Of a stretch of 32,000 nucleotides of DNA, positions 1 through 21,677 are shown in pieces (the first letter of the stretch is position 1; each line of letters begins with the position of its first letter). The stretch lies in the NCBI GenBank assembly GCA_030614005.1, contig JAUWKS010000002.1, forward strand, positions 137,888-169,887, given 5' to 3'. Position numbers and translations under genes: made by a program. The notes below the pieces were generated by a model. That model saw only the letters and a list, made by a program, of their open reading frames with translations. It was not told the DNA's origin and did not search any database. This stretch comes from Candidatus Heimdallarchaeota archaeon (GTDB lineage: Archaea; Asgardarchaeota; Heimdallarchaeia; JABLTI01).

Positions 1-1884
1 CAGCTATTAGACAATGCTATGAAGGATAGTGACTGGGTGTCATTTTATAACTTTATGAATGGCATTTTTCTAAATAACCCCTCTATTCTGAAAGTTGAAA
101 GGTATCTAGAGTTTTTGCTTAAAAGTGAATATCCGGTTTTCAGATTTCTAGGTGTAAATGCATTATTCTTCTCTGAAAATACTTTACAAGAAAAACGGCT
201 AGATGGAATTTTAGCCAAAGAGGAGAATCCAAATGTAATTGCTGCAGCTATTAGAATTAAAGCACTAAGTGGAGGATTAAATTTCGATAATGTTATTAAT
301 TTCTTTAATTGGAAATTTCAATTCAAAAGAATGTATATGAAAGAAATTAATATTGGTGCTACAAGAGATATTGAACTTACAGTTATCTCCACACCAATGA
401 ATGAAGATCTTAAATTTGAAATAAAGAATAGAATGTATTCCTTTGGAATTGCCACTAATCATTTTACTTCTTTTCTGCAGACATTGCATACAAAATACGG
501 ATACAAAAAGAGTAAAATGTATCCCTTTGATATAATTAAAAAACTTAGACAAAAAGAGAATTTGAAAGATATTGAATTTGAAATACCAAATTGGTTAATC
601 ATTGGATTAAAAAACAAATATGAACCTCTAATTAGAGCATCATTGGTATACTTGATTGCATATTTAATGGAAATAAAATCGATAAATGTAAATACTATTG
701 TTGAGCTCATCAAACCATTAGATGAACACGATGATAAAGAAATAAAAGCATATAGTAAATTTCTTCTATCATTGTATCAAGAAGGTTATTTCCTTAATTG
801 TTTAAATGAAATATCCGAATTCACAAATATAGAACAATTAGCTCTCATATGGTCAATTTCACTAAATACAGATTTTAGTGTTCATAGAAAAATTTTCAAA
901 ATACTACCTTCACTATCTGAACGTATAAGAGAGTTATATTTCTCTTTTATACCTCAAACCAATGAGTTATTCTATTTATACTTAGAGGAAATTACAAAAA
1001 ATCCAACAGTTGCTTATCCAGAGTATGTCTCACAATTTGAAAAACATAAATGGGGATTCTCACCAAGAAAGGAGTATATTCCTGGGAGAGATGTTCTATT
1101 CACTTGGAATTACGTTTTTGCAGATTCAATTATTTGGACTCACATAAAGAAATCTCTTAATATAAACCCAAATGATAAACCATATCCTGAAGATATAATT
1201 GATAAATCAATGAATTGGTTATCAAAATTGAATACTCAACCATTTGATATTTTGGGTACAAAAATATATCAAATTATCGAAGAAATGTTAGATTCAAAAG
1301 ATTCAATTATTTGTTCCCTTGGAATATTATTATCATCCATGACTAAAAAATTTCCAAAAAATTTCTCATCAAAGATAAATAATGAAAGCTGGGTTAAAGC
1401 TAATATTTATTCTTTATTGATGTTATTTGATGATTTACCACTCGATAATTCTTTAAAGATTATTCAAATTGGTTTGAAATCAAATCATCCAATAAATGTC
1501 TATTTGGCATTAAAGTGTATAAAATTAGAATTTGGATTCAAAAAAGTAATCGAATTATTGGATAAGAAGCTATTACAATTTGGCTTGCACAATGATCTAT
1601 ATTATCATGATAATCGAATCAAAATCATTGAAGCTATTCGTTTATTCTGGAAGGAGAATTGTAATCAATTACTGAAAGAAGATTTTGATTTTGTAATGAA
1701 ATGGGCTGCTGAGACAAATAGAATCATTTGGTTATCATGGGAACAAATTCAACGTAATACTTTGTTTGATATTCTAAATTGGTCTCTTGAAAATGAAGAG
1801 AACCAAAACTTGTATTGGACTATTACCCATGTTTTATTTAGCAGAATTTGGTTCTCAAAAGGACTGCCTTGGAATAAAAGATGA
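1..1884 (+). CDS. Hypothetical alpha-helical (HEAT/ARM-like) protein, probably 5'-truncated by the window edge
   Basis: 621-aa ORF from ATG 19. The frame is open back to base 1 (CAG CTA TTA GAC AAT GCT ATG). Leu/Ile-rich helical pattern with HEAT-like segments (ENPNVIAAAIRIKAL; no catalytic motif recognised). Confidence 0.6.
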   Translation, partial: QLLDNAMKDSDWVSFYNFMNGIFLNNPSILKVERYLEFLLKSEYPVFRFLGVNALFFSENTLQEKRLDGILAKEENPNVIAAAIRIKALSGGLNFDNVINFFNWKFQFKRMYMKEINIGATRDIELTVISTPMNEDLKFEIKNRMYSFGIATNHFTSFLQTLHTKYGYKKSKMYPFDIIKKLRQKENLKDIEFEIPNWLIIGLKNKYEPLIRASLVYLIAYLMEIKSINVNTIVELIKPLDEHDDKEIKAYSKFLLSLYQEGYFLNCLNEISEFTNIEQLALIWSISLNTDFSVHRKIFKILPSLSERIRELYFSFIPQTNELFYLYLEEITKNPTVAYPEYVSQFEKHKWGFSPRKEYIPGRDVLFTWNYVFADSIIWTHIKKSLNINPNDKPYPEDIIDKSMNWLSKLNTQPFDILGTKIYQIIEEMLDSKDSIICSLGILLSSMTKKFPKNFSSKINNESWVKANIYSLLMLFDDLPLDNSLKIIQIGLKSNHPINVYLALKCIKLEFGFKKVIELLDKKLLQFGLHNDLYYHDNRIKIIEAIRLFWKENCNQLLKEDFDFVMKWAAETNRIIWLSWEQIQRNTLFDILNWSLENEENQNLYWTITHVLFSRIWFSKGLPWNKR

Positions 1885-2645: not shown

Positions 2646-3027
2646 TCAAGCGGATTGCAGAAGGAGGAAATACAGTAAAAGTGGGAAACCAACACCAAAA
2701 GCAAGTAGGGATGCAAATGAAACAAAATATTTCACCCATTTCTTTGTTACTGTTCTTACATATCCGGCCGATCTTCTCGAGATAGAATATTTCCTAAATT
2801 GCCAATTTGTTAAAGGTGTTACCGGTGGATCATATTTCTTTCCTTGTGGTTTTTCTGTAATGCTTAGTAAATGATTCCAAGTTTTCACTTGTAAAATACA
2901 TCGATACTCTTCAAATGGGCTATAACCAAGTTCTTGGTCCTTCGTTTTGTTGTAGTATTTTTCCCCTTTCTTTTCTATTTCTGTGAATTCATGTCCGGGA
3001 GCTTCTATTGTTGACCGTTCCTTTTTT
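2646..3027 (-). pseudogene. 3' half of the host membrane-protein gene interrupted by the 3028-14168 element
   Basis: The frame of the 80-aa track ORF (2646-2888) stays open upstream to the TIR (KKERSTIEAPGHEFTEIEKKGEKYYNKTKDQELGYSPFEEYRCILQVKTW...). It has no ATG there and ends in a C-terminal TM helix. Confidence 0.75.
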
Positions 3028-3045
3028 TATGGACAAATAGGACAT
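3028..3045 (+). repeat. Left terminal inverted repeat TATGGACAAATAGGACAT
   Basis: Exact reverse complement of 14151-14168; contains GGACA twice, 9 bp apart. Confidence 0.9.
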
Positions 3046-3165
3046 TTATCCATCACCAGTCACCACAACAAGTCCAGAGGATTTGTTGCAGCTCATCTCT
3101 GAGCCCCCACTAGGAATAGTTGAGTGGAGGGTTCCCGAGTCCATGTAGGGCACGGGGCTAGTGTC
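3046..3165 (-). ncRNA. Candidate TnpB omegaRNA/reRNA scaffold overlapping the tnpB 3' end
   Basis: Three consecutive hairpins on the minus strand: CCUCCACU/AGUGGGGG (8 bp with a G-U pair), GCUCA-GAGA-UGAGC (GNRA loop), CAACAA-A-UCC-UCU-GGA-C-UUGUUG. The G-U pair and GNRA loop favour the minus strand. This is the known position of TnpB omegaRNAs. Ends are approximate. Confidence 0.65.
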
Positions 3166-4686
3166 TTTAAGACTTTTAATTTTAACATAATCTATGAAGC
3201 TTGCACGATAAATGTTCACAGAAGCATTATAGTCTCTGTCTGCAGTGAAACCGCATTCGGGGCAGTGGAAGAAGCGACCACATTTGTTCTCTAACAGATT
3301 GTTTGGTCCTTTCACTTTCAAGCCTTTTGCGCTGCATCTTGAGCAGTGACTGGAAGTATTCCAAGGACAAACTTTCACAAGTGTTAGCCCTTTTTGTCGG
3401 CACTTGTAGTCTAGGAGGAAGACTATTCTTCCTCTTAGCCAGTAGCTTAATTTTCTTGACCAGGATCTCTTTCCACGAGGAGGTTTGTAATCTCGCAGGT
3501 CTTCGATAGCGATTTTTGTGCACTGCCATTTTTGGGCAATTTCTATGAGCTTGTTTGTTGTATAATGAGCCAATTCTTCTCCTAAGCGATTTCTTTTTTG
3601 GTAGAGCTTGCTTCTCTCTTCTTCTCTTCGAGCGACTTTTATTTGCTTGCTTGGTCTTTTCTTTTTCTGCTTGGATAGTTGTCGTTGTATGCCGGCAATA
3701 TGCCCATATAGTCTTTCTATGTGCCTGTATTGTCCACCGATCATATTGATGAAAATTGGCTTGGAAATTTGTTTTCCATCCTCACAAACCACACATGTAG
3801 CCACTTTTTTCAAACCAGGATCTACTGCAAGCACTCGCTCTTTTCCTTCTTTTGGTATCGTTTCTCCTGGGTATTCCCATGGAAACTGTAAGAAGAAGTA
3901 TTCGAGCCCTGCTTTCAAGTTCTTGGTTCGCAAAGTAGGTTTTAATGGTTGAGGATATATTGCTTGTGCGATTTTTTCTTCTATTTTTTCGGGCACGAAC
4001 AGTGTTTGTTCTATCCAAACCCAATCGCTTCTCTTTTTTGGTTCCAAACTTGTTGGTAGCTTTATCTCTAGATTGATGGTTTGTTTTTCTACAGTATATT
4101 TTATTGCTTGGTCATCATCTGGTGCGTAAGGGAAAGTGTATCGTTTTATTTTTGGTTTCACAAAGTCTGTGTAAATGAAATTAGAAAATGCCTCTCCGAG
4201 TCTTTGGTGCAAATTCTTTATCATTTCTATTGTTTGCTCGATCATGACTTTCTTGTATCGGTAGTAAGTTTTTTCACCATTCTTTGCGGTATTTCTGCAG
4301 TGCTGTCTTACCACTGAAACCAATTTTTGTTCTGTTGTTTGTATCCCTAACCACTCGACTATTTGGATGCAATCATAGTAACAGCTCATGCGCTTATGTT
4401 GTCCTCTAATTATTCGTCCTACCCATTCTGTTACTCCTCTTAGTACCCTGGAGGGAAGATATACTCCTTCTGTTTTCGCTTGTGCTTCGTTGATTGCTTT
4501 GTATGCATTGAGTTTGCTTTCACCTATCCTTGTTATCCATTCTTCTGACCATATTTTATCGAGGAGGTCTTGAGCAGTTTTTGTCGTTAACTCTTTGAAC
4601 CAGTTTAATCTTTCATCTTGTGTCATTTTGAATTGGTAGCTATTGATTGGATTATTTTTGTTTCTCTTTTTCTTGTTGGAGGACAT
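3046..4686 (-). CDS. tnpB: TnpB/Cas12f-like RNA-guided endonuclease (IS200/IS605 OrfB family), 546 aa
   Basis: RuvC-I VLAVDPG (D289), RuvC-II IAIEDL (E395), Zn finger CSRC...CPEC, RuvC-III ADRDYNAS (D485). All three catalytic acidic residues are present. Confidence 0.92.
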   Translation of the reverse strand: MSSNKKKRNKNNPINSYQFKMTQDERLNWFKELTTKTAQDLLDKIWSEEWITRIGESKLNAYKAINEAQAKTEGVYLPSRVLRGVTEWVGRIIRGQHKRMSCYYDCIQIVEWLGIQTTEQKLVSVVRQHCRNTAKNGEKTYYRYKKVMIEQTIEMIKNLHQRLGEAFSNFIYTDFVKPKIKRYTFPYAPDDDQAIKYTVEKQTINLEIKLPTSLEPKKRSDWVWIEQTLFVPEKIEEKIAQAIYPQPLKPTLRTKNLKAGLEYFFLQFPWEYPGETIPKEGKERVLAVDPGLKKVATCVVCEDGKQISKPIFINMIGGQYRHIERLYGHIAGIQRQLSKQKKKRPSKQIKVARREEERSKLYQKRNRLGEELAHYTTNKLIEIAQKWQCTKIAIEDLRDYKPPRGKRSWSRKLSYWLRGRIVFLLDYKCRQKGLTLVKVCPWNTSSHCSRCSAKGLKVKGPNNLLENKCGRFFHCPECGFTADRDYNASVNIYRASFIDYVKIKSLKDTSPVPYMDSGTLHSTIPSGGSEMSCNKSSGLVVVTGDG

Positions 4687-4857: not shown

Positions 4858-6486
4858 ATGCAAGACTTTCTCAATTGGCGAACGGATCCATTACTAGTGG
4901 ATATTGAACCTGCCAGACCTAACCAATGGTTCACAGCAAATGAGTTAATAGAGGGAGATAGAAGAGATTCATTCATAACACCGGAAAATCAATTGCTTCT
5001 TTATCCAATCATGATCCGAAAAAACGATTTCATAACCGGGGAACGAATCTTGCAATCGTTTCCATATATTCTATTAGACACTAGAATAATTTCCAAATGT
5101 CGTAAACAATCTCTTGCATTAGCAGAAAAAACCCATTATTATTTTCAAGGCTCTAATTATAATCATTCTATTCGTGATTGGCAGAAAAAGTTCATCAGTT
5201 ATTTAGAAGAACAACAACGCCTGCCTTTTCCTCTATTTCGACTTTATGATGATTGGTTAGATTATATAAAAGAGAAAAAATTTGCTCGATTCCAATCTGC
5301 TCGAGGAGAGAATTTTCAATTACCACTTTATCTTTCCGAGGACTTGGCTTATCTTTCCGGTGTGGTTATGGGTGATGGTCATCTGGCGGAATATTTTGTT
5401 AATATCATTGATTCTTCAAAAGAGCACATTCTAAATTTAAAAGAAAAGCTTGAAGAGCAATTCAATTCCAAAACGGAATTTTTCAAACAACCAAACGCTA
5501 AAGCTTGGAATGTCAATATTCTAGGTAAATGGATCGTTCGCTTCTTTAACTTTATTTTATCACAACCAATTAAAGAGAGAAAATATCCTGCTCTTAGAGA
5601 ACCATTTATTTTTCGAGAGAATGAGTATTTTCGCAGTAGGTTTTGGTCAGGATTGATGGATGCAGATGGTACCTATAAAAGAGTTATTGGATTTAGTTCT
5701 GCATCCAAACAACTTCGATCTGACTTTTCTAATTACTTAGATGAAAACAATATAAAACATCGATTTTATGAGTATAGTGTTTTTGGTGGAACTACTTTTA
5801 GTATAACTATTGCAGGTCATTCAAGAAAGCCATTTGCTCAACAAATAGGTTCAAATCATCCAGATAAACAACAAGAACTGCAGTTACTATTACAGAAAAA
5901 AGTCTATCGATTTTCACCTCGAATTACTACTCTCAGAAAAAAAAACTCATGGAACGAGCAAGTTCAAGACTTTTCTAAAGATGCAATCCTTGATGGTTTT
6001 TTTAATCTTTCATTAATTACCACTCTACAAATTTTAGATTTAGGTAGTGATATAAAATCACTGCGAAAAAAGCACAAGGAAAAACAAAAAGAATTAGCTT
6101 CATATTTAGAGATTACCCCTAGTTTACTTTCAAAATATGAATTAAATAAAACAGCACTTCCAATTTATATTCTTAAAAAGATACTTTCAAAATACAATGT
6201 TTCATTTAATCACTTTTTTTCTCAATTAAGTAATTTAATTTTCCGTTCTACAAGTTCTAGTTGTCAGTTTCCATTAAAACCAGAAGAAAGGTTATTGACT
6301 TTAATTAGAGGATTACAAATTATGCCAGAAAATTATTTTCGAGTTATAGGATTGAGAGAAGTGTCAATTGAACATTATAAGAAAGAAATTAGTGATTATT
6401 TTAAAATTAATGAACCTATAACAGATGTTTTTCATAACGCTTGTTTAGTTGAATTGATTCGATCATTTTGCTTAATCCGAAATTAA
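4858..6486 (+). CDS. Stand-alone double-motif LAGLIDADG (DOD/intein-type) endonuclease with a C-terminal XRE-type HTH
   Basis: Motifs LAYLSGVVMGDGHL (~5344-5385) and FWSGLMDADGTY (~5641-5676). HTH IKSLRKKHKEKQKELASYLEITPSLLSKYELNK (~6055-6150). RBS AGGAGA upstream. No intein splicing termini recognised. Confidence 0.85.
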   Translation: MQDFLNWRTDPLLVDIEPARPNQWFTANELIEGDRRDSFITPENQLLLYPIMIRKNDFITGERILQSFPYILLDTRIISKCRKQSLALAEKTHYYFQGSNYNHSIRDWQKKFISYLEEQQRLPFPLFRLYDDWLDYIKEKKFARFQSARGENFQLPLYLSEDLAYLSGVVMGDGHLAEYFVNIIDSSKEHILNLKEKLEEQFNSKTEFFKQPNAKAWNVNILGKWIVRFFNFILSQPIKERKYPALREPFIFRENEYFRSRFWSGLMDADGTYKRVIGFSSASKQLRSDFSNYLDENNIKHRFYEYSVFGGTTFSITIAGHSRKPFAQQIGSNHPDKQQELQLLLQKKVYRFSPRITTLRKKNSWNEQVQDFSKDAILDGFFNLSLITTLQILDLGSDIKSLRKKHKEKQKELASYLEITPSLLSKYELNKTALPIYILKKILSKYNVSFNHFFSQLSNLIFRSTSSSCQFPLKPEERLLTLIRGLQIMPENYFRVIGLREVSIEHYKKEISDYFKINEPITDVFHNACLVELIRSFCLIRN

Positions 6487-6806: not shown

Positions 6807-9800
6807 ATGAGTAAAGCTGTTTCTTCCACAAAAAAACTTCCTCTTTGTCTTTCTATGGGTGTGACAGAGGTGCTAGAAGGAAGGGAGAGCATAACAGGTA
6901 AAGACCTTCTAGATTATTTTTCTTTACAGGATAAAACATCTTTTCTTACTAACACGAAAAATTTTGTTCTTGTTTGTGGAAATAAACAGAGACCAAATGA
7001 CTATGAGCCTAACAAATTCCTCGGCTCTTTTGGTGTTCGAAGAGCACTAGCAATGAAGAATTACACTCGATTGCCTGTAATTATTGTTACCAATAACCGT
7101 TTTGAAACTTCTATGCTTATTGAGCAGTTTAATAAACTAACTTCTTGTTTCAAACTATACACATCAAAGAAAAGTCAAAGAGAAAATATTAATGAAGAAA
7201 TTAAAGCGGACTACCCGAATGAAGCAGACTTTATACTGACAACATATAGCTCTTTCTGGGATCAAACAACAAACAAGGATGATCCATCTTCAGAACAAAT
7301 TATCTTAATCAATCCATTAAGACTAAAATATATCATCGAGGATGTAGGCAAATTAGATGTCATTTTTGGCTGTATACATAGGCATAAGCGAATAAGACCG
7401 AATTATTCCTTCATTCTTGATGAAGCACACTACCCAATTCTATCAAAGAAAGATTATCAATTCTTATTTAAAGCAGGCAATAGTCTTTTCTTTAGATGCA
7501 AAGAGAGAATGCTTTTAGAATATAATAATCCATTCAGAGAAGCTATTTCTCACCTAACTAGTGATCAATTCCAGCTATTTATTTTCACAGATCTTTTTAG
7601 GGGAAGAAAACTGATAAAAGAACTGGTTAAAGAGTTCAAATCAACTTTTACTTATAAAATGTACCTCTACAGTAATGGTATTTTTCCAACAATTGATGAA
7701 AAATTGCCTTCAAAAGAACTTCTTAAAGAAAAGAATAGGCTTGATAAGAAAGTTTTAAGTGGAATTGTAAAACAAATACATTTATTCACAAAAGGAAGCA
7801 ACACCAAAACGATAACAGGAAAAGTAACTTACAGCGATTTTGATTTTAACGTTGGCCTCAGTAAACAAGAGATATCTCGAACGTATTCCTGGGATAAACC
7901 AAAAGAAGCAGCAAGATTCCTTCCGGTAGTCACTAAGGAAGAAGGAAGATTCAAACTTAGCGCTCTAGGAGAAGAAATATTTGGTGTGTCATCATGGTTT
8001 AGTGGTGTTGAGGACAATTTTAGCGAACTTTTAGCTCACTTTTCTAGGATCCTTTACAAAAACAAGAAGGAAAACCACAAATTTTCCGTGAAAGAGATAA
8101 TCATTTTTTATCTTCAAATGATAGATTGCAATTATGAAACAGTGAAAAGATTTGAGGAGGCAATTCCTGAAAAGTTAGACACAGAAAAAAAGAATGACCA
8201 AATGATCGCAATCCTTGAAAAGAAATTCAAGCCACTAGTTAAAAATTTCAAAAGAGTTTCAGCAAAAAAAATCCTTGGTGCTTTTGAAAAATTAATGAAT
8301 ACTGAAGCATACATTTTCTATCAACAATTCAAGAATTATAAGAAAGAAGAGAAACGTTCCTGGGAAGAGAGAAGGAGAAAAGCGGTCCTAAGAAAAGCAA
8401 ATTATCAGCCCTTAGCTGTGAAATTCACAGGTGATTATTATCACATGTTTTGGCAAGACGCCAAGAAGTTATTGGAAGAATTAGTTGAAGAAGGGCGACT
8501 TGTCAGGATTATTTCTTACAATGGTAGAGGAAAACCGATACTAAAGTACCTTACTCAAGAATTACTGGATGCGAACCCTCATTTCCAAAAGAATTGCGGG
8601 AACTGTCAATGGTACAATCAACGCTTCAAAACATGCACCTTTTTACGTTTAAAACAAGCGAAAAACCCGAGTACAATGACAAAAGAAGAATTTGAATATG
8701 CTAATGATACACTAAGATTTGAAGCAACTGCTTGTGAGAAGTACATAGAAAAAGATGATTTTCAGTCGATGGAAGGCAATGTTAAGTTCACTGCTACCGT
8801 TGAGAAGTTAACTAAAGATATGAAGAATATATCAATGAGCTTTTTATCAGGAGATATTGCAGAGTACAAGTATCATTGTCTTTCTTGCCAGGAACAAATA
8901 GAAGAATTTGGTACAGGTGATAGAATCTTCTTTCCAAGGAGAAGAATTATTTGTCCTAACTGTTCGACAGTTTATCTTCAACTAAAAGATCGGAAAAAAG
9001 TAAAAGTGAAAATGGAGGAAAGAGATCATCAAAGAAGCTTATACTTCAAAGAAACTGGGACCATTACTGACGTTTTGAGGAAGAAAGATTCTGCTCGTGT
9101 TTTTGTCATACATGACATAGATAGTGCTAGATTAAGAATCAACGAAGAAAATGATGAGCCACCTTATTTTCTAGTGATAGGTAAAAATGAAATAGCTCTG
9201 GATTTGGTGCAGTTTGTCTATTTTTCAGGTATACGTCATCAAGAATTAGAAGAAACAATGTGGTTACTAGCGGACCTTGATTCTGAAAGATACAAATACA
9301 AAATTAAGCGAACAGAACAAAAGTCAAAGAAGAAAAAAGCAAAAAGTCGATATAAAAGACCCTTTTCAGCTGAAGACTATTCCAATATCATAAAAATAAT
9401 CAAAAAAAGCTCCGATAAAGAAATATTCAACCATCAATTTTTGGAAGCAAGGCTTATCTCAAATATTGCTGGAATGTTATCAATAAAATATGAAATAGAA
9501 ATGGAAAGCTTCTCTGACTGGCATTACAATCACCAATTGTTGGAAATGGTTGATTTGCATATGAAAGTAATTGGCGGAGAAGTAAAGTCAAGCTATTATG
9601 GAACTCAATTAGAAGCACTTAGCAACAAGCACTTTTTTGACTTTTTGAAGGGAGAAGCTGCGAGAGTAGGTCTCTGGTCAAAAGGGCGAGTGAATAGCAG
9701 GCTAGTGATAGATATGCTTAAATCCTTCAGCCAAAAGGTTAGTAGTGCTTTTTCACCTTTAGATGCTTTACTGAATCAAATGTTGCGCTCATTCAGAGTA

Positions 9801-10985
9801 GAATTAGATCCGTTGTTTCACAGGATGGGCATGGATCCTGCAATGTTAGGTCCAGGTTTGTTTCATAGACGAAAAACAAAATCTGATATTGACCAGCTAG
9901 GTTTTTACTTCGACTTAATAGAAGCTGTGCGAGTTCTAGTGCTTGTAACTATTGTTAAAGCTATTCGAGATGGCACCCTCGGTTTTGATGATTGTAAATA
10001 CGTACTAGGTGAGGATGGACAAGAGATCTATCAAGTGAAAGGTTCTTCCCTGGATAAATTCACCAATCTGGTTTCAGAAGCTCTTGAACAAACCGTTTCA
10101 CATCAAGGGCAAAGAATGACTTTTAAACAAGCTTTTGAATTCAATCTTTTGTGCTTAAGAGTTGCTTTTGAAAAATGTCTTTCAGAGATAGAAGAACATA
10201 AACAAATTACTTTGAAAAAAATCAAGAAGTGTTTTGATGATTCACTTTTTATTTCATTTACTTTCTGCCCTGAAGGACTAGAAGAGAAGTTAATAGATTT
10301 AAATCGATTTGCAAGTAAAGAAGGAGTAATTTTCTTTGGAAAAGAACAAGAAGTTTTGGAACGAAAAGAAACAAGAGAAAAATATAGAAAAGAAGTAAAG
10401 AGTCATTGGTACAACGAAAATGTGATTAAAAAGCTAAATGCTTTTCGGTTGACCAAACATCAAATTAAAGAGCAAGATAGAAGTTTGCTTGTTATTTTGT
10501 TGTTATTGTACAATACTTTTGAAAGAGATTTTACAATTGATGAATACTCAACTAATCATTTTAAGGAATTACTTGGAATAACTCAAAACCAAGTACAGAG
10601 ATTACTTGATCAAATGGTTTCCAGTGGATTGCTTCTTCGAGAGAAAGTAAATAGAAAGAATTTCTACGAGTTAAATCTTAAAAATCTAAATGTTAAGGAC
10701 TTTCGTTTTCTTCTTGGAGTAAATCTCTCTTTAGAGGAACATCTTCAAAGAGAGTTTATCATCAATATTCCTCCTCATTTAGAGCGAGTTGAAAAGATTA
10801 TTTCTCAAATCAAATTGCTTCCTACTAATCAACAAAAAGTCATAAGAAGTAATTTTTGGTTTGATTGGGAACCAACAGAAATTATTCGAAGAGTAATTGT
10901 TTGGGCAGAAGAGAAAGCTGTAACTAGTAAAGCATTTTTCAAAATGATAGGTGATATTCATGGTAAAAAGCAGTTACATTTTTAA
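6807..10985 (+). CDS. cas1: Giant multidomain Cas1-like integrase (casposase-like): degenerate SF2-helicase-like domain, Zn fingers, Cas1, wHTH; 1392 aa
   Basis: Cas1 beta-domain pattern from ~aa 763 (RVFVIHD...IALDLVQFVYFSG). Helical domain with LEA (E936), SPLDALLNQM, MGMDPAMLGPGLFH (H1020), LGFYFDLIEAVR (D1036/E1039). wHTH ~aa 1245-1291. N-terminal VIIVTNNR, FILTTYSSF, ILDEAH (D205). Cys motifs CGNC (597), CLSC (691), CPNC (716). Confidence 0.8.
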   Translation: MSKAVSSTKKLPLCLSMGVTEVLEGRESITGKDLLDYFSLQDKTSFLTNTKNFVLVCGNKQRPNDYEPNKFLGSFGVRRALAMKNYTRLPVIIVTNNRFETSMLIEQFNKLTSCFKLYTSKKSQRENINEEIKADYPNEADFILTTYSSFWDQTTNKDDPSSEQIILINPLRLKYIIEDVGKLDVIFGCIHRHKRIRPNYSFILDEAHYPILSKKDYQFLFKAGNSLFFRCKERMLLEYNNPFREAISHLTSDQFQLFIFTDLFRGRKLIKELVKEFKSTFTYKMYLYSNGIFPTIDEKLPSKELLKEKNRLDKKVLSGIVKQIHLFTKGSNTKTITGKVTYSDFDFNVGLSKQEISRTYSWDKPKEAARFLPVVTKEEGRFKLSALGEEIFGVSSWFSGVEDNFSELLAHFSRILYKNKKENHKFSVKEIIIFYLQMIDCNYETVKRFEEAIPEKLDTEKKNDQMIAILEKKFKPLVKNFKRVSAKKILGAFEKLMNTEAYIFYQQFKNYKKEEKRSWEERRRKAVLRKANYQPLAVKFTGDYYHMFWQDAKKLLEELVEEGRLVRIISYNGRGKPILKYLTQELLDANPHFQKNCGNCQWYNQRFKTCTFLRLKQAKNPSTMTKEEFEYANDTLRFEATACEKYIEKDDFQSMEGNVKFTATVEKLTKDMKNISMSFLSGDIAEYKYHCLSCQEQIEEFGTGDRIFFPRRRIICPNCSTVYLQLKDRKKVKVKMEERDHQRSLYFKETGTITDVLRKKDSARVFVIHDIDSARLRINEENDEPPYFLVIGKNEIALDLVQFVYFSGIRHQELEETMWLLADLDSERYKYKIKRTEQKSKKKKAKSRYKRPFSAEDYSNIIKIIKKSSDKEIFNHQFLEARLISNIAGMLSIKYEIEMESFSDWHYNHQLLEMVDLHMKVIGGEVKSSYYGTQLEALSNKHFFDFLKGEAARVGLWSKGRVNSRLVIDMLKSFSQKVSSAFSPLDALLNQMLRSFRVELDPLFHRMGMDPAMLGPGLFHRRKTKSDIDQLGFYFDLIEAVRVLVLVTIVKAIRDGTLGFDDCKYVLGEDGQEIYQVKGSSLDKFTNLVSEALEQTVSHQGQRMTFKQAFEFNLLCLRVAFEKCLSEIEEHKQITLKKIKKCFDDSLFISFTFCPEGLEEKLIDLNRFASKEGVIFFGKEQEVLERKETREKYRKEVKSHWYNENVIKKLNAFRLTKHQIKEQDRSLLVILLLLYNTFERDFTIDEYSTNHFKELLGITQNQVQRLLDQMVSSGLLLREKVNRKNFYELNLKNLNVKDFRFLLGVNLSLEEHLQREFIINIPPHLERVEKIISQIKLLPTNQQKVIRSNFWFDWEPTEIIRRVIVWAEEKAVTSKAFFKMIGDIHGKKQLHF

Positions 10986-13900
10986 CAAGAAAGAAATCTT
11001 CCCGATTAATCCTGGTAAACCCCGAAAATGGATCACTATTCATAACCTTCCTGCTACTGAACCAAGGAAAATAACTGGTCTCACATGGCAAGAAGTACTA
11101 CCTGGTTATGCTCAAGCTTTAGCAGAAGTGATCGAAGAAATAACTGGTAGTAAGAACCCCTATGAGCACCAAGAACAAGCAATAAAGCATTTATTGAATA
11201 ATTCTGCTAATAAGAAATGCCTGGACCTCATAATTAAAGGTGGAACTTATTCAGGAAAATCACTATCTTTCATCGTTCCTGGTATCATCAAGCAAATAAA
11301 TGAGGAAACGGATTTTACAGTCATTTTTTACCCTTCGAAACAATTACTCCTAGACCAATTTGAAAGAGTGAAAGAGTATTTGGTGAAATTCGAGGAAAAA
11401 ACAGGCATCAGATTAATTTGTGAAAAGTACAGTGGAGATACTGGAAATACTAATTACTCTAAAGGGGTAGCTCGTGTAAATGATCAAGAGCTGAATAATT
11501 TAGAACAGAACCCGCCGAATGTCTTGCTTGCCACTTTTGACAAATTTTGGCATCATTATGAGAGTGGGAACAGCAGTCCGTTAATAAAGAAAATAGCATC
11601 TGCAAATTATCTTGTTTTTGATGAGATACATGCATTTGACGGTTACGCTGCAGGTAACATTAAGGGCTTTATTGCTATTCACAAGAAAGCTAATCCTCAG
11701 GGGCAATTTATACTTTCCTCTGCTACTATAGCTAATGTTGAAGGATTCAGAGACGATTTCTTGCCTAATGCTAAAATAATTACTTGCCCACCAGTGAGAG
11801 GAGAACAAGTGTATGTTGGCACAACAATTGAACACACAGTTTCACTGCTTGCAGATTTCTGGAAAGAAATGGAAAAAATGCCAGGAAAAACCGGTCTTGT
11901 TTTCCTTGATTCGAAAGAAAACATCGAATTATTAACAGACCTACTCTGTAGGAAACTCAAGCAGGATGACCCTTTCTTTGATCCTGACACTGTGCAGATG
12001 ATCCACGCAGATTTGGAATATTATCATCGTAAAAGAGTGCAAGATGAGCTTCGAAAAGGAAATAGAAATATTATTAGAATTCTCATCTCTTCCTCAGTCT
12101 TGGAGCTTGGTGTAAATATCCCTAACATTCAAACAGTATTTAATATTGGCATTCCGATAACACAGAAAGATGGTATTATTCAAAGGATGGCTCGCAATCG
12201 CTCTGTTCCCGGTGAAAGAAGAACGAATGTTTTTCTGTTCGACCTTTCTAAGAAACGTGACAGTTTTTACTGGAACAATAAGGAAATCCTCAAGGACATT
12301 CTTGAAACGAATGCTTGTAACCCTATTCTTTATCCCAAACTTAACCCGAAGATATTGGCGGGGCAAATTATCTTGCACCTTAGATACGGTATTAATGACT
12401 TTGGAGAGATAATGCAATTCTTCCTTGATCAAGGACCACAAGTTTATCGCTTAGCAAGACAACAATACACTAAACTTGTTAGTTTAAATGTCCTGAAAAA
12501 AAGCAGCGATGGTAAAGTTCTCTTCACAAGCCAAGGAGAAAAAAAGCTAAAAGTGCAAGCAAAAAAGAAAAATCATCTTGTTCCGTTCTCCATACGAGCT
12601 ATTAAAAATAATTGGTCTATTAAGAAAAAATTTGGAGAAAGTTCTTACTGGCATGAAAATAGAAAATCTAGTCTTGGTAAGATCTCTACCAAGGATGTTT
12701 TAAAGAAAGGATTGCCTGACAATATTATTACTCGTAACAAAAAACAGTATCTTGTTACGGATAAAGATCAGCAATTAAGAACTATTTACGTTAAAGAATT
12801 ACTTTCTAAAGAAAAAAGTGCTGGAAATTTTTCCGGAATAACTAATCGTTTACTTGACCCTCAGATAACTCCTGGTGTTTTCTCTAAGAAAGTTAAAGGA
12901 ACAAAAATAGTTGACATTAGTTTTGGTCAAGTTTCAATTAAGCAACAACCTTTAGCTATTGTTAACTCTAATCCCGAAAAAATTAGTTCTAATAATACTC
13001 ATGTAAAGGATAACAAGAACTTTTTTTGGCAAGAATTAACCCCAAAACGCTCGGAAGAATTGGCTAATACTGAAAAGTCAGATGGATTAGCCATTACATT
13101 AACTTCTGATATTCCAAAACCAAAAGAACTTACAACTAAGAAATTACTAGAATATTTTGGGCGCGTCCTACAAGTTGAGATTGAAACCGTTCTTTCAATT
13201 CCAGGTAGTGAATTCGCACTTGCGATTAATACTAATCAATTAGCAATTTATGATAAAGGAGACCCAAATGGAAACTCAGAGTATTTGTTTAGTCATTTAC
13301 AAAAAGTCGCTGCTCGAACGCTCAAAAGATTGACAGATTGTTCTTGTGAAAATGGTTGCAAAAATTGTTATGGTGAAATTCTTGGCTTATTTCCTAAAGG
13401 AGTAAAAGAATCACTAAAAATACTTTTCAAGGATTTAACGCTGATTTCTGAAGTGGAGTTTGATGATGAATTGTTGCATGAAATCAATCCTGAGCAAATG
13501 AATTTCAAAGAAAACAGAATTATTGCTTTTTCAGATATTCATCTTACAAACAAGCTTTGTTTCCAGGAAGAATTTTTCGAAGCGCTCAAAGAGCAGAGTA
13601 AACAAGCTGATATTATCATCATCAATGGTGATTTATTAGATACTATTTCAGAAGATAGTTATCAGGCTTTTAGTGAATTCAAAAGCATGGCTATACGTGA
13701 AGGTTTTTGGTCGAAACTAGTTCTGATACGCAGTTCTTCTATTCATGACGGCAATCTTGAGCAATTCACAGGTTTCCTCCATCAAGATTATGTTGAAGTT
13801 GAGATCGGTTCTGAACAAGTATTATTCGTCCACGGAAATAGGATCGGCATAAATCCTAGTTTAGTAGATAAAACAAGTATAGGAAAAGCTGTCTTTGAAG

Positions 13901-14127
13901 CAAAAAAGGCTTTAATAAAGCCGGGCAAGATTTGGCTTCCTGTTATTCTCCCTGAAACTCATCTTGTTATTGGCCATGTTCATCTCCGATTTTATAATGA
14001 ACGCTTTCGAGTTTATGGTTCTGGTCACTGGACAAAAAAAGGTGACCCTTACAATCAACGATGCATGATAATTCTTGACCCTAATTCTTTAGATGTGCCA
14101 AAAATCGTTTCATTTGATAACTATTAG
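10951..14127 (+). CDS. DEAD/DEAH-box (YprA/Hrq1/SftH-like) helicase + DUF1998 Zn domain + calcineurin-like metallophosphoesterase
   Basis: Q motif PYEHQEQA, Walker A GGTYSGKS, YPSKQLLLDQ, DEIH, SAT, SSVLELGVNI. DUF1998-type IYD..PNG...CSCENGCKNC. C-terminal SDIH, NGDLLD, FVHG, GHVH. Likely start is ATG 10960 after a GGTGA RBS, overlapping the cas1 stop. Confidence 0.88.
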   Translation: MIFMVKSSYIFNKKEIFPINPGKPRKWITIHNLPATEPRKITGLTWQEVLPGYAQALAEVIEEITGSKNPYEHQEQAIKHLLNNSANKKCLDLIIKGGTYSGKSLSFIVPGIIKQINEETDFTVIFYPSKQLLLDQFERVKEYLVKFEEKTGIRLICEKYSGDTGNTNYSKGVARVNDQELNNLEQNPPNVLLATFDKFWHHYESGNSSPLIKKIASANYLVFDEIHAFDGYAAGNIKGFIAIHKKANPQGQFILSSATIANVEGFRDDFLPNAKIITCPPVRGEQVYVGTTIEHTVSLLADFWKEMEKMPGKTGLVFLDSKENIELLTDLLCRKLKQDDPFFDPDTVQMIHADLEYYHRKRVQDELRKGNRNIIRILISSSVLELGVNIPNIQTVFNIGIPITQKDGIIQRMARNRSVPGERRTNVFLFDLSKKRDSFYWNNKEILKDILETNACNPILYPKLNPKILAGQIILHLRYGINDFGEIMQFFLDQGPQVYRLARQQYTKLVSLNVLKKSSDGKVLFTSQGEKKLKVQAKKKNHLVPFSIRAIKNNWSIKKKFGESSYWHENRKSSLGKISTKDVLKKGLPDNIITRNKKQYLVTDKDQQLRTIYVKELLSKEKSAGNFSGITNRLLDPQITPGVFSKKVKGTKIVDISFGQVSIKQQPLAIVNSNPEKISSNNTHVKDNKNFFWQELTPKRSEELANTEKSDGLAITLTSDIPKPKELTTKKLLEYFGRVLQVEIETVLSIPGSEFALAINTNQLAIYDKGDPNGNSEYLFSHLQKVAARTLKRLTDCSCENGCKNCYGEILGLFPKGVKESLKILFKDLTLISEVEFDDELLHEINPEQMNFKENRIIAFSDIHLTNKLCFQEEFFEALKEQSKQADIIIINGDLLDTISEDSYQAFSEFKSMAIREGFWSKLVLIRSSSIHDGNLEQFTGFLHQDYVEVEIGSEQVLFVHGNRIGINPSLVDKTSIGKAVFEAKKALIKPGKIWLPVILPETHLVIGHVHLRFYNERFRVYGSGHWTKKGDPYNQRCMIILDPNSLDVPKIVSFDNY

Positions 14128-14150: not shown

Positions 14151-14168
14151 ATGTCCTATTTGTCCATA
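14151..14168 (+). repeat. Right terminal inverted repeat ATGTCCTATTTGTCCATA
   Basis: Exact reverse complement of 3028-3045. Confidence 0.9.
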
Positions 14169-14319
14169 TTTTGTGGCAACAGTTGACACCCTTAATTATA
14201 TCACTTGTTTTCAGAACAGAATAATTTCTTCGTTCCATACCTGTTAATTTCAAGCCGGTTAGAAAAGCAATTAACCCTAGAGTAGGTCCGATGAACACAA
14301 TAATAGCTATTACATTCAT
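14169..14319 (-). pseudogene. 5' half of the host membrane-protein gene interrupted by the element
   Basis: MNVIAIIVFIGPTLGLIAFLTGLK...KGVNCCHK (ATG 14319, N-terminal TM helix) reads into the TIR (IWTNRT) and stops at 14149, just inside the element. Confidence 0.72.
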
Positions 14320-17577: not shown

Positions 17578-18717
17578 CTATGCTTCAAGCCTTCTCGTCT
17601 TCGAGGTGGTTGTCCTCTCAGAGAGAGCAGTATCATGGTCAGTGAAGGAAAGCATCTCAGCATCCATAGCAGTATCAAGTTCTTCTCTTCTACTTGCCGA
17701 TAATGAGATAATTTCATTATGTATTACTAATTTTCCATTATAAAAGTCATTTATTGCTAAATTTACCATTAACAAAAGATGATTTTTCAAGTAATTTTTT
17801 CCATACTGGAAGGATTCTACTATCCTTTCAAGATTATCTGAAAGAAGGAGATAATTATAAAGTTTTAGATGATTAACTTGATTCACTTCAATATCTTTTT
17901 TTAATTGCTGAAAGTCAATCTTCCCTTTTGACTTGTCATAGCGAAAGGTTGTCTGGTATGGCTTCTTTCGAGTGATGTAAGAGGCAAGTCTATCGTAATA
18001 CTGCACTATTGGTAGGAGCATATTGGTACTTCCTTCTCCATTGTGGTGGTTTAGACAAGCTTCTCTAACTTCTTCATCTACGATGTCTATCTGTTGGAAA
18101 ATTTTACTGTTGTGTTTCTCTGTGTGAACAAAATCGTGTAGCATGAGAGCAATAAGCAATCTTTGTAATTCCTCAGGGTAATCTGCTCGTAAACCAGCTC
18201 GAATTTTGAATTTCTTATACTGCCATGTTTGATTACAAGAAGTACATCGTTTGCGTTTAGAATTTTTATCATAGATTGTTGTTGAATTCTTGCATTGAGG
18301 ACATTTCTCAGATAAAGGAACGGTTACAGTAGGATCTGTTTTTGTAAAATGCTTGATTTCACATGATTCCCAAAGGACTCTACCATACCCTTCAGCAGTC
18401 TTTGGACCCAAGAATGATTTCTGGAGAAATGGTTCTATTTTCCTCTTTAGCTGTTCTTCTGAAAACCCCACACAACTGATTGTAACAAATCCTCGGAACC
18501 CATGTAAGACCGTAGGATACTGATTCTTGCCATAGACCAATTTACCTATAGTTGAAAAGAGAGGTTTAGTTTCCTTCTTTGGATCTCCGACCACTTTTAC
18601 CAAACACCCGTGCTTCCAATATGTTGATTGAGAAACGACAATTGGATTCACCAACCGACCCACGAGTGTAGCAATTTTCTTTTGTTTTATTTGTATGTTT
18701 TCCATGCGTCTAAACAT
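17578..18717 (-). CDS. Cas5-like RAMP fused to a Zn ribbon and a Cas10-type (circularly permuted) HD nuclease
   Basis: RAMP Gly loop FLGPKTAEGYGRV; CPQC...CTSC; HD motifs LMLHDF, CLNHH, YYDRLAS, and a downstream LKNHLLLMVNLA. Overlaps the cas7 stop. The Cas5 versus other RAMP subfamily assignment is inferred from size and position. Confidence 0.7.
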   Translation of the reverse strand: MFRRMENIQIKQKKIATLVGRLVNPIVVSQSTYWKHGCLVKVVGDPKKETKPLFSTIGKLVYGKNQYPTVLHGFRGFVTISCVGFSEEQLKRKIEPFLQKSFLGPKTAEGYGRVLWESCEIKHFTKTDPTVTVPLSEKCPQCKNSTTIYDKNSKRKRCTSCNQTWQYKKFKIRAGLRADYPEELQRLLIALMLHDFVHTEKHNSKIFQQIDIVDEEVREACLNHHNGEGSTNMLLPIVQYYDRLASYITRKKPYQTTFRYDKSKGKIDFQQLKKDIEVNQVNHLKLYNYLLLSDNLERIVESFQYGKNYLKNHLLLMVNLAINDFYNGKLVIHNEIISLSASRREELDTAMDAEMLSFTDHDTALSERTTTSKTRRLEA

Positions 18718-19631
18718 TCCTGTAATAGTTGATTTTGATATGTAGTTCTTTCTTCCTCAATGATAGCTAATTTCCCATCACCATTTTCTTGCCCTAATTT
18801 TCTCTCGAAAACTATCTTCTCATACGAAACATTTTTTATCTCAAGACGACCATACCCACTATTTTCTCCTCGACCAAGATACTTTAAAGAAAAAATTCCA
18901 TCAATAAGTAGCCCAAGTAACCATTGTGGGAGAGATTCTGAAAATTCAACATAGAATTGAAACTCTCCACTGAAATATTGTTCACTAAAATCTTGCAAGA
19001 CTTTTCCATCTCTTCGTGAAGCATGACGATTCTCAGTAGAAACATGAACAAATGAAAGGCCTTTTTGAGCAGTGATTTTATTAGAAGGTTTATCGGTTTG
19101 TACGAGAGCATCAGTCCATACTCTTATAGGGGACTTCTCACCAAGCATACCAAATAACTGTCTTACAGGGCATGGGTTCTCTCCACATTTACCCATAAGA
19201 TGCTCGTTGATTAGTAAGGTTGGTTCATTGTTTCCTTGAAATCTCTCTTTCATAGTAGGAGAGCAATATTCAATTCCTCTGTTATGTAGAATCTCCATGA
19301 TACTATGTCTAATTGCACCACGAACGCCTTTAACCATCCGAGAGCTTCCAAGTTCTTCTTTAAGAGTAAAGACTTGAATTTTAGCGTCGTTTTCCTTTCC
19401 TTCTGCTTTAACTTTTAGCTCGTTAAAATCATCAAGAATCAAATCTTTGTTGGTTAAGAGGAATTCCTCTAATTCTGAAACCTTAACATTTGTTCTACCT
19501 TGAAATTGATAGGGAACGTCTCCCCCTTTCATAAGAAAGGAACTTTTACCGCTACTTCCATTAAGCGTTTTCGTAAACCAAGCATATACCTTAACTGTTA
19601 AACGATTGAAAGTGTGTGTCATAATCATCAT
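18687..19631 (-). CDS. cas7: Cas7-group RAMP (Csm3-like)
   Basis: KGVRGAIRH (cf. SLKGALR), C...CGENPCPVRQLFG, thumb STENRHASRRDG, Gly loop LGRGENSGYGRL. KGGDVPY lies at about the position of the Csm3 GGxD catalytic loop. Confidence 0.82.
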   Translation of the reverse strand: MMIMTHTFNRLTVKVYAWFTKTLNGSSGKSSFLMKGGDVPYQFQGRTNVKVSELEEFLLTNKDLILDDFNELKVKAEGKENDAKIQVFTLKEELGSSRMVKGVRGAIRHSIMEILHNRGIEYCSPTMKERFQGNNEPTLLINEHLMGKCGENPCPVRQLFGMLGEKSPIRVWTDALVQTDKPSNKITAQKGLSFVHVSTENRHASRRDGKVLQDFSEQYFSGEFQFYVEFSESLPQWLLGLLIDGIFSLKYLGRGENSGYGRLEIKNVSYEKIVFERKLGQENGDGKLAIIEEERTTYQNQLLQECLDAWKTYK

Positions 19632-20054: not shown

Positions 20055-21677
20055 CTAATTCTTTCCAAGTAATTCCTTCGCTAAACACGGTCGTAACTCT
20101 GGCTTAGATTCCCAAATTTCTTTTATCTCAGACGGGGACTTCTTAACGGTTTCTTCTGCTAAAGTTGTCCGCTTATCACACTCAGCCAGAGTGATCTCTT
20201 TTGCACACAGAGAGCATTTCTCAGCAAACGTTATCAATAACTCTCGTTCTTCTTGAGTTATATTCTTAACATCAAATGTTAATACAACAATTGCTTTTTT
20301 TAATCTACTTGTATCTTGCACTGTTTCTGTTGGTTCTTGCTTTCCTACTGAACTAATCTGTTTGTATTCCATTTCTTTAAATTCATCTAATATCACCAGT
20401 GCTAAAAATTGTTGTAATTCAGTTTCTTTCTTCCAGACTTTGGGGATGTTTTCAATCCATTGAGTGTTTTCCTCTTCTGTTATTCCTAACAGGCTTTTAG
20501 CTATACTTCTCTTATCAACAATCTCTTCTGGTGAAAGTTTAGCATAATCTATTGTTGCAGCTACTATCTCAAAAATCTGTTTTGCTTCATCTATCGTCTC
20601 ACTATCGGACAGAGGATAATGAGTCATTGTCTCTTGAGGTACTTGTTTATCCGGTTCTTCTTCCTTTTCATCTTGTAGTAATTTTAATCCCATTCGCTTT
20701 TTCTCTTCGAGTGTCTTTTTATCGACTTGGAAAATCTCTCCGTAATACCTGAAGAATACCTCCAGACCATCAATTTGATCAAACTTGCTTAAAGCTGTTA
20801 GTTCTCGTATCAAATGACAGATTGAACATAACAAGAACTTATCCATTAGCTCAGGTGTTAATTCCCATTTCGTATATTTTCTAAGATATAGCTTTACTAT
20901 ATGTCGAAGTTCTTTGATATTGTATATTCGATCGTGTAAACACTCCGCTGTAAAATCATGTTTATCAGTAGTAGAACAAACTTTCTGTATAATTTTAGTC
21001 AATTTAGGATCTCCTTCAAGATTTTTCATAAAATCAAAAAACAAAACTTCCGGGGGTTCGGTTTCCATCACTATATCTTCCTCCTCCTCCTGTGAGAATG
21101 CTTCACCTATCTCAAAAGAATCATCATCAAAAGCAGTTTCAACTGTTTCGGGAGAACTCTCCTCGATTCTAATTAAATCCGTTTTTTTATTATTCCATCT
21201 CTTATTGATCCGTTCTTCATAATCTTGGATAGTTGCATTATTTGCATCAATATTCATCAAATAATAATAAACTAATAACAAGTTAGTGAGCAATGATTTT
21301 ATTTTTGATATACCTACTTTTTTCTTTTCTCTCTCTTTGAGTATCTTCTTGCATCCAAGAACACAAAAGGTCAATATCCTAACTGAATTTTTCTTATGTG
21401 TTTTGTAGAATGTTAATCCCTCTTCTGTTCTACGCAGGTGTTTTATTATCTTACTCTCTATTACACTAATCGTTTCATCAATCAAGGTTTTGTTTAGTTC
21501 TCTATCACCGGTCTTTCCCTTGATGAATTGGCTGAGAATGATATTTTCCTCGGATACGTCCTCGATAATTGCTGACCAATCTTGCATCATACATATTGGA
21601 AAGTGGTCAATTGCTCTTGGACATGGAGCTTTGAATAACTCTTGGTAGGCTTTCTCAGTCTTGGAAATATTCTTCAT
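20055..21677 (-). CDS. Hypothetical helical protein (540 aa)
   Basis: The track ORF starts at 21749, but ATG 21677 (MKNISK) has a GGAGG RBS and overlaps the ATPase stop by 23 nt. Acidic linker DDDSFEIGEAFSQEEEED. No family recognised. Confidence 0.75.
   Translation of the reverse strand: MKNISKTEKAYQELFKAPCPRAIDHFPICMMQDWSAIIEDVSEENIILSQFIKGKTGDRELNKTLIDETISVIESKIIKHLRRTEEGLTFYKTHKKNSVRILTFCVLGCKKILKEREKKKVGISKIKSLLTNLLLVYYYLMNIDANNATIQDYEERINKRWNNKKTDLIRIEESSPETVETAFDDDSFEIGEAFSQEEEEDIVMETEPPEVLFFDFMKNLEGDPKLTKIIQKVCSTTDKHDFTAECLHDRIYNIKELRHIVKLYLRKYTKWELTPELMDKFLLCSICHLIRELTALSKFDQIDGLEVFFRYYGEIFQVDKKTLEEKKRMGLKLLQDEKEEEPDKQVPQETMTHYPLSDSETIDEAKQIFEIVAATIDYAKLSPEEIVDKRSIAKSLLGITEEENTQWIENIPKVWKKETELQQFLALVILDEFKEMEYKQISSVGKQEPTETVQDTSRLKKAIVVLTFDVKNITQEERELLITFAEKCSLCAKEITLAECDKRTTLAEETVKKSPSEIKEIWESKPELRPCLAKELLGKN

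Follow-up and report, generated by a model that had tools for sequence, protein, structure and literature searches.

The locus and its Cas1 fusion protein

We analysed a 32-kb stretch of DNA (the window, by which we mean the whole of this stretch) from a Heimdall-group (Asgard) archaeon, whose own metagenome-assembled genome (MAG) is about 90% complete. Between about positions 3017 and 14190 the window carries an insertion of 11.2 kb with four genes. The first is tnpB (3046..4686, - strand), which encodes OrfB_IS605 and Cas12f1-like TNB domains and reads outward to one end of the insertion, here called the A end. It is followed by a WhiA/meganuclease-like gene with LAGLIDADG_3 and helix-turn-helix (HTH_3) domains (4858..6486, + strand). 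The third gene (6807..10985, + strand) encodes P0001, a 1392-residue fusion protein containing a very divergent Asgard Cas1 (aCas1), and the fourth (10951..14127, + strand) a superfamily 2 (SF2) helicase joined to an MZB/DUF1998 zinc domain and a calcineurin-like phosphoesterase. The domains of P0001's neighbours were assigned with Pfam and, for the helicase, also PADLOC. The four-gene block is a bounded insertion whose position differs between two species of the same genus, and we are highly confident that the P0001 gene is part of a mobile element. P0001 is also our candidate for the enzyme that moves it.

A search of 5.8 billion proteins found 18 relatives of P0001, all but one of them full length (1367-1392 aa, 32-78% identity); for two, an origin in a Heimdallarchaeota MAG is named. 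The alignment of 17 full-length sequences, on which all counts of invariance given below are based, is unbroken, indicating a genuine fusion rather than an artefact of assembly. Mean identity to P0001 is alike in every domain (0.46-0.59), which argues that the whole fusion is under constraint. An earlier note on this DNA had described an open reading frame (ORF) of 1392 aa joining helicase-like, zinc-binding and Cas1 parts, a casposase-like integrase about three times the usual size. The ORF list, its translation and the full-length homologues bear this out, P0001 being three to four times as large as a normal Cas1. Searches of the whole protein against Pfam, NCBIfam, PADLOC and the PDB (the last with phmmer and profiles) returned nothing above noise. 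The Cas1 family (PF01867) went unseen in all of these, and a six-frame search of the archaeon's own genome with PF01867 did not report the P0001 locus.

The Cas1 part was revealed by structure and by profile-profile comparison. An AlphaFold2 model of residues 740-1190, made from the 17-sequence alignment, had a mean pLDDT (predicted local distance difference test) of 80.7. It consists of a beta domain (aa ~765-835; 9099..9311, + strand), delimited by the model strands and by alignment to 4n06_B, and a helical domain (aa ~850-1155; 9354..10271, + strand), delimited by structure matches, invariance and hhalign; this is the two-domain architecture of Cas1. In a Foldseek comparison with the PDB, 56 matches reached E <= 0.001 and the best 50 were all Cas1 or casposase, headed by the casposase 6opm (E 1.2e-8), with Archaeoglobus fulgidus Cas1 (4n06) at E 4.4e-8. 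VIA-align, which is independent of Foldseek, gave as its best match 4n06_B (Z 19.6, 270 residues aligned, root-mean-square deviation (rmsd) 6.4; model residues 48-416 on chain residues 18-345). Among the others were 7mi4_A (Z 19.4, 254 aligned, rmsd 3.6), 7kft_D (Z 18.5) and the casposase 6opm_A (Z 18.3, 252 aligned, rmsd 3.4). The first 12 structures in this ranking were all Cas1 or casposases, and unrelated structures appeared from Z 7.7 downwards. The fold score does not separate casposases from CRISPR Cas1 (Z 18.3 versus 17-19.6).

Four residues of the helical domain, E936 (codon 9612-9614), H1020 (9864-9866), D1036 (9912-9914) and E1039 (9921-9923, all + strand), are invariant in 17 of 17 sequences. 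When the P0001 family was aligned by hhalign in local mode to a profile that combined 24 canonical Cas1 sequences from the archaeon's class (E 0.0064 over 292 columns), E936 fell on the Cas1 glutamate, H1020 on the histidine of the GfLH motif and FDLIE, which contains D1036 and E1039, on LDlxE. The segment GRVNSRLV...SPLDALLNQ was likewise placed on the arginine-rich and N-x-x-L segment of Cas1. Sequence identity at this distance is 10-15%, a level at which a Cas1 phylogeny would hardly be reliable. The residues are present as quoted in the earlier note, which had recognised their Cas1-like contexts, and the structural comparison that it had proposed for this region gives a Cas1 fold at Z 17-20. 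On the strength of the model, we conclude that P0001 carries a complete Cas1 fold with invariant catalytic residues.

The N-terminal part of the protein has a different character. A model of the first 760 residues had a pLDDT of 69.4, high at aa 40-330 and mixed outside, and fold searches and motifs identify aa ~12-330 (6840..7796, + strand) as an SF2 helicase-like domain. Its best match was Hjm (2zj2; Z 15.6, 251 aligned, rmsd 4.1), with further SF2 matches to Slh1 (Z 15.5), Hel308 (2va8; Z 15.2) and Hachiman HamB (8vx9; Z 14.3); structure matches confined to RecA1 had Z of about 12. Foldseek E values for this domain ranged from 1.8e-4 to 1e-2, and its matches among AlphaFold database (AFDB) clusters, against which the N-terminal part was also searched, were helicases. 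The domain contains no GxGK[ST]; at the P-loop position stands VCGNKQRPN, which is unconserved except that N59 is nearly invariant. A dead helicase-like domain without Walker A had been proposed in the earlier note and agrees with these results. The same note's assignment of ILDEAH to motif II is probably wrong, by about one strand. In the model the order of elements is I, Ia, Ib, IILINPL, a long helix and SFILDEA, such that the strand at the motif II position is ILINPL, in which N169-P170-L171 are invariant; within ILDEAH, D205 is the sole invariant residue. Two weak alignments to the adjoining helicase, by BLASTP (E 0.007) and by hhalign (E 0.037 over 278 columns), both match ILDEAH to motif III (SAT). 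We consider motif III the more likely assignment from the modelled strand order and these alignments. Walker A and the DExH box both appear to have been lost, and since both nucleotide-binding motifs are missing we refer to aa ~12-330 as a pseudo-helicase.

Three further modules probably concern DNA or metal binding. A winged-helix-like unit of three helices and a beta hairpin is predicted at aa 519-582 (8361..8552, + strand) from the secondary structure of the model alone, in keeping with the N-terminal winged helix-turn-helix (wHTH)-like segment noticed earlier. Residues 597-719 (8595..8963, + strand) contain two Cys4 clusters, C597/C600/C610/C643 and C691/C694/C716/C719, also picked out in the earlier reading, and all eight cysteines are invariant. 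They are putative zinc fingers or a ribbon, with weak matches to Zn_ribbon_8 and TIGR04104. The C-terminal wHTH (aa ~1225-1300; 10479..10706, + strand) that had been suggested likewise finds consistent, if sub-threshold, matches in many of the 17 members. All fall at one place (aa ~1250-1290) and all are to winged-helix families, namely MarR_2 in 8 of 17, TrmB in 5 of 17 and HTH_36 (best E 9.6e-5); PADLOC contributes WH_III-A (E 0.0023).

Two Cas1-like families of distant paralogues align with P0001 in the Cys4 region and retain its catalytic residues: P0032 (1215 aa, 24% identical over 554 columns) and the shorter P0034 (645 aa). The second Cys4 cluster is common to the short aCas1 P0034, and so the combination of zinc ribbon and Cas1 looks like an older core. 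The zinc ribbon and the His/Asp/Glu motif are common to P0032 and P0034; the pseudo-helicase N-terminus is present in one and not the other. These families suggest stepwise growth of aCas1 proteins from a zinc-ribbon-Cas1 core.

Ends, empty sites and relatives of the insertion

The A end (3017..3045), as set by comparison with empty sites, consists of GTTCCTTTTTTT followed by a 17-nt core, ATGGACAAATAGGACAT, with host ACC just outside. The B end (14151..14190) has the inverted 17-nt core and about 23 nt of outer sequence. The three nucleotides ACC at its tip fit equally as element or host. The ends are defined to within about 3 nt. Overall the inverted ends are imperfect, with a perfect 18-nt repeat at 3028-3045 and 14151-14168. 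On either side lie the pieces of a host membrane-protein gene, its C-terminal fragment at 2649..3016 and its N-terminal fragment at 14191..14319 (both - strand). In the sister genome G010 (same genus, other species) the sequences flanking the insertion are 87% and 84% identical to those of the window and lie 311 bp apart, with the element absent. There the site is occupied by an intact gene for a 269-aa membrane protein (L016 1048-1857), the orthologue of the gene that was hit.

Two other placements of the boundaries were considered and set aside. An A-end boundary at 3014 (ACCGTTCC) was dropped because ACC, judged by the empty sites, belongs to the host or target. The host gene can also be rejoined in frame, either with the first boundaries or by assuming a 2-bp TT duplication. 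Both joins are open, but they must be coincidental, as the G010 orthologue has about 105 extra codons between the two halves.

The sister genome carries a related element elsewhere. At this locus, L002, the same four genes are bracketed by the same sequence, as a perfect 22-nt core within a 33-34-nt imperfect repeat, and comparison with the site ...GAGTTAACC^CTAATTC... on contig C99 of the window's own genome identifies it as a clean insertion. ACC stands outside every A end (10 in the own genome and that of L002), and CT (AG on the tnpB strand) outside all B ends with a visible flank; in the window these flanks are 3014-3016 and 14191-14192.

The 17-nt core has 25 copies in the own genome, versus 0-1 for a control sequence, mostly within 300 nt of contig ends. 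They fall into two classes: A ends, in which GTTCCTTTTTTT and the core are followed by the 3' end of tnpB, and B ends, in which about 24 nt of other conserved sequence precede the core. On two contigs (C5:1-305 and C124:1-310) some 0.3 kb of sequence runs from a B end through about 100 nt and the final 50 codons of a tnpB to an A end. From this layout and the position of the other copies at contig ends, we infer about ten ~0.3-kb derivatives in the own genome. The derivatives break the assembly and were seen at about 20 contig ends. Their A end is identical to that of the window over 29 nt, as against 58% protein identity for the adjoining tnpB.

The four-gene order is identical at L002 (Cas1 protein 78% identical), L003 (54%) and L012 (44%), where the modules lie between quite different host genes and tnpB has the same position; a further locus, L014 (Cas1 37% identical), is without tnpB. 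The gene for the helicase, which overlaps the end of the P0001 gene by 35 nt in the window, also adjoins the Cas1 gene at L002, L003 and L012 and on contig C63. Its helicase motifs are intact (GKS and DEIH are present) and its zinc domain is of the MrfA type, confirming the earlier observation that a helicase lies next to P0001. At every locus seen, the LAGLIDADG-HTH gene lies 5' of the one for Cas1, and the order of the three-gene core is unchanged with or without tnpB (L014; C63).

The own genome contains four paralogous modules, with diverged copies on C63 (complete), on C8 and on C48 plus C29, as well as a remote variant on C110. The C63 module (L043, C63:32500-46500) is 39% identical to that of the window in Cas1, 60% in the helicase, 54% in the LAGLIDADG protein and 44% in TnpB. 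A 21-nt inverted repeat (L043 3051-3071 and 12538-12558) brackets three of its genes and excludes tnpB. We consider this repeat weak, as it is confined to its own two arms and a control gave two chance matches at the same stringency. More widely, we searched 82 representative genomes of the class with a profile of the Cas1 domain. Strong matches came from the window's genus alone (the own genome and 6 of the 10 others), the one weak match outside it was in G019 (E 4.9e-7), and no genome had more than six matches.

Some observations on the surroundings may be added. The LAGLIDADG plus HTH family occupies at least 13 loci of the own genome at 32-67% identity (e.g. C9:124392-125786 and C9:127798-129093), and several of these paralogues adjoin tnpB or Cas1-like genes, two of them just upstream of the window. 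Within the window, a RAMP-superfamily protein (PF03787, E 8.6e-6) is encoded beside a zinc-ribbon protein (17578-19631, - strand), and a 968-aa HerA/DUF87-type ATPase at 21655-24561 (- strand). The RAMP genes may represent a RAMP system without an array, similar to ARAMP. A 621-aa open-ended ORF at 19-1884 (+ strand) matched nothing in Pfam, NCBIfam or PADLOC. Repeat and tRNA searches of the 32-kb window found neither a CRISPR array nor a tRNA, and no Cas2 was recognised among its larger ORFs (>=80 aa, un-nested). Canonical Cas1, present in 30 of the 82 class genomes, was not found in the own genome by the six-frame PF01867 search.

The enzyme that moves the element

P0001 is the sole protein in the element with a recombinase-type active site. 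Neither in the element nor in the own genome was a Y1 TnpA (PF01797) or a serine recombinase found, and among the 11 genomes of the genus, which are incomplete MAGs, there was no credible Y1 TnpA, only two marginal fragments. In addition, conservation is much higher in the ends than in the adjacent tnpB coding sequence, which points to a factor that reads the ends in trans. Taken together, these three observations lead us to regard P0001 as the transposase. The Cas1 fold, the retained catalytic residues, the intact helicase and the mobile insertion make a casposase-like role the leading reading. That P0001 is the recombinase or transposase of this 11.2-kb polymerase-free element is, in our judgement, probable, though only just.

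Several observations weigh against this assignment. The L002/C99 pair allows a duplication of at most AACC (3-4 bp), not the 14-15 bp of casposase-like insertion; this length rests on a single clean filled/empty pair. At the window site 311 bp of the target have gone, which means that either the insertion was no simple one or a deletion came later. The biased flanks (ACC and CT) and the outward orientation of the tnpB-side end recall IS200/IS605. Repeat searches did not find clear inverted ends at L003 or L012. The B ends of the short derivatives differ from that of the window at 7 of 24 outer positions, and on C63 tnpB points the same way as its three companion genes and falls beyond the weak inverted repeat. 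Finally, since MAGs are incomplete and repeats often remain unassembled, the data could lack a transposase that acts in trans. The earlier note had called P0001 an active casposase-like integrase. The Cas1 fold, the kept residues and the mobile insertion support that description; the lack of a family B polymerase (PolB), the lack of a 14-15-bp duplication and a fold score that does not tell casposases from CRISPR Cas1 do not.

If P0001 is the transposase, a working scheme can be proposed. The wHTH and zinc modules would recognise the ends by their conserved, inverted 17-bp core, and the Cas1 domain would join the 3'-OH ends of the element to the target in a metal-dependent transesterification of the kind that Cas1 and casposases carry out. 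The adjoining helicase-nuclease might free or trim the ends, and the dead helicase domain could provide a DNA-binding or docking scaffold; the roles given here to the extra domains of P0001, in recognising ends or target and in docking the helicase, are guesses. TnpB, guided by an RNA transcribed outward over the A end, would re-cut emptied donor sites and so restore the element, as in IS200/IS605. Were the guide to cross the A end in this way, the B-side flank (WAAG-like) would serve as the target-adjacent motif (TAM) of TnpB and the A-side flank as its target, the two together making up the empty site. The LAGLIDADG-HTH protein may be a regulator or an accessory nuclease. In its full form the proposal is that P0001 is a transposase of a new mechanistic type. 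With the helicase-nuclease and its own DNA-reading module of pseudo-helicase and zinc fingers, it would move an 11-kb polymerase-free element and the 0.3-kb derivatives, with almost no duplication and beside a short motif, while TnpB restores the donor site. This fuller scheme we put forward tentatively, as somewhat more apt to be wrong in some part than right throughout.

The most serious alternative is that P0001, the helicase-nuclease and the LAGLIDADG-HTH protein are a CRISPR-less defence or DNA-processing cargo, carried on an IS200/IS605-like TnpB element that is moved by another enzyme, whose gene lies elsewhere or is absent from the assembly. The helicase does resemble those of defence systems (PADLOC matches to SngC of Shango at E 1.8e-16, DruE, BrxH and Cas3-like proteins), RAMP and HerA-like genes lie 4-10 kb downstream of the P0001 module, and Asgard CRISPR derivatives with an odd Cas1 (ARAMP) are thought to be defence systems (PMC8730458). 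The logic of ends and flanks, with no long duplication, short biased flanks and an outward tnpB, would also be that of IS200/IS605. However, the other enzyme is not in evidence, given the absence of Y1 and serine transposases from the own genome and of a credible Y1 TnpA from the 11 genus genomes, and the three-gene core keeps its order whether or not tnpB accompanies it (L014, C63). Several diverged paralogues in one genome and a patchy spread fit selfish elements, and the RAMP genes are absent from the neighbourhood of the other Cas1-fusion loci examined (L002, L003 and L012). We judge this cargo explanation unlikely, though it deserves to be taken seriously.

It is also conceivable, but quite improbable, that the block spreads mainly by nuclease-driven homing, with the LAGLIDADG protein or TnpB cutting and recombination making the copy, and with Cas1 serving in end protection, regulation or some other task. 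Both putative nucleases are encoded in the window and at L002, L003 and L012, and a replacement of 311 bp, as seen in the window, is of the kind that repair-mediated events can produce. Homing requires homologous flanks, though, and leaves copies at unrelated loci unexplained; the LAGLIDADG protein carries an HTH like that of the WhiA regulator, and the invariance of the Cas1 catalytic residues across the aligned sequences suggests that catalysis is under selection. That P0001 is a host gene domesticated for repair or regulatory work, without a part in mobility, is very improbable: its even conservation (0.46-0.59 mean identity per domain) would suit such a gene, but it lies in a bounded insertion missing from the same site in a sister species, and it is multi-copy and patchy, since of the 10 other genomes of the genus 6 have it and elsewhere in the class it is all but absent.

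Comparison with known systems

Cas1 is known from two settings, the capture of CRISPR spacers and casposons, and it has precedents for fusion or association with other enzymes, the Cas2/3 helicase-nuclease of type I-F being one case. P0001 shares the two-domain fold and the Glu, His and Asp-Glu positions with the Cas1 of CRISPR adaptation (A. fulgidus 4n06, Cas4-Cas1 7mi4 and the reverse transcriptase-Cas1 7kft). CRISPR adaptation modules, however, have an array, whereas the window has none and the own genome is without a canonical Cas1.

Casposons (e.g. Methanosarcina mazei family 2, 6opm) resemble the present element in having a Cas1-fold integrase with a C-terminal HTH and terminal inverted repeats. 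They differ in encoding PolB, whereas none of the four genes here is a family B polymerase, and in making a target duplication of 14-15 bp, compared with at most 4 bp here. P0001 is in addition three to four times larger, with a pseudo-helicase and zinc fingers, and the element adds tnpB. The P0001 element is therefore not a casposon, for want of PolB and of a long target duplication.

With IS200/IS605 the element has in common a tnpB at one end reading outward and, as far as the one clean filled/empty pair shows, the absence of a long duplication beside short biased junctions, as well as short derivatives that keep both ends and the 3' part of tnpB. IS200/IS605 has a Y1 TnpA, of which none was found in the element, the own genome or, credibly, the genus; conversely, the window element has imperfect inverted repeats of ~33 nt and ~9 kb between tnpB and the far end. 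The single-strand transposition of IS200/IS605 uses an enzyme other than Cas1.

The closest counterparts are aCas1-TnpB elements, a kind that to our knowledge is a computational prediction, for which we know of no experimental test. In what Altae-Tran et al (2023, PMC10691335) say of these loci, Asgard Cas1 variants (aCas1) replace TnpA beside TnpB in two Asgard groups (TnpB groups Cas1H-Asgard-1 and -2), and the repeats on either side of the loci are the reason given for proposing that aCas1 is the transposase; for the aCas1 families the paper cites Makarova et al (2020; CRISPR J 3:156). The earlier note had treated the protein as new, whereas a link between Asgard aCas1 and TnpB had already been published in that paper (PMC10691335). 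As described there, the loci share with ours an Asgard host, an extremely diverged Cas1 by tnpB, flanking repeats and the absence of a CRISPR array. They are also described as having a hypervariable region and then GTTCACTCA downstream of tnpB, and the tnpB of the window is without both; no GTTCACTCA was found near it, and the three one-mismatch matches elsewhere in the window are below chance. By its Asgard host, adjoining tnpB and flanking repeats, the window locus fits the aCas1-TnpB kind. The present analysis contributes the pseudo-helicase assignment, boundaries to ~3 nt, two pairs of filled and empty sites, the near-zero duplication and the family of short derivatives.

The divergence of aCas1 proteins is such that sequence models miss them, and structure and profile-profile comparison alone reveal P0001. 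The copy in the window is well suited to tests, being full length and having defined ends, filled and empty sites, derivatives, candidate catalytic residues and a partner helicase-nuclease. If P0001 is indeed the transposase, Cas1 would have been put to a third, independent use besides CRISPR adaptation and casposons, and the pairing of a low-duplication Cas1-type integrase with RNA-guided TnpB would bear on the origin of CRISPR adaptation and on tools for DNA insertion.

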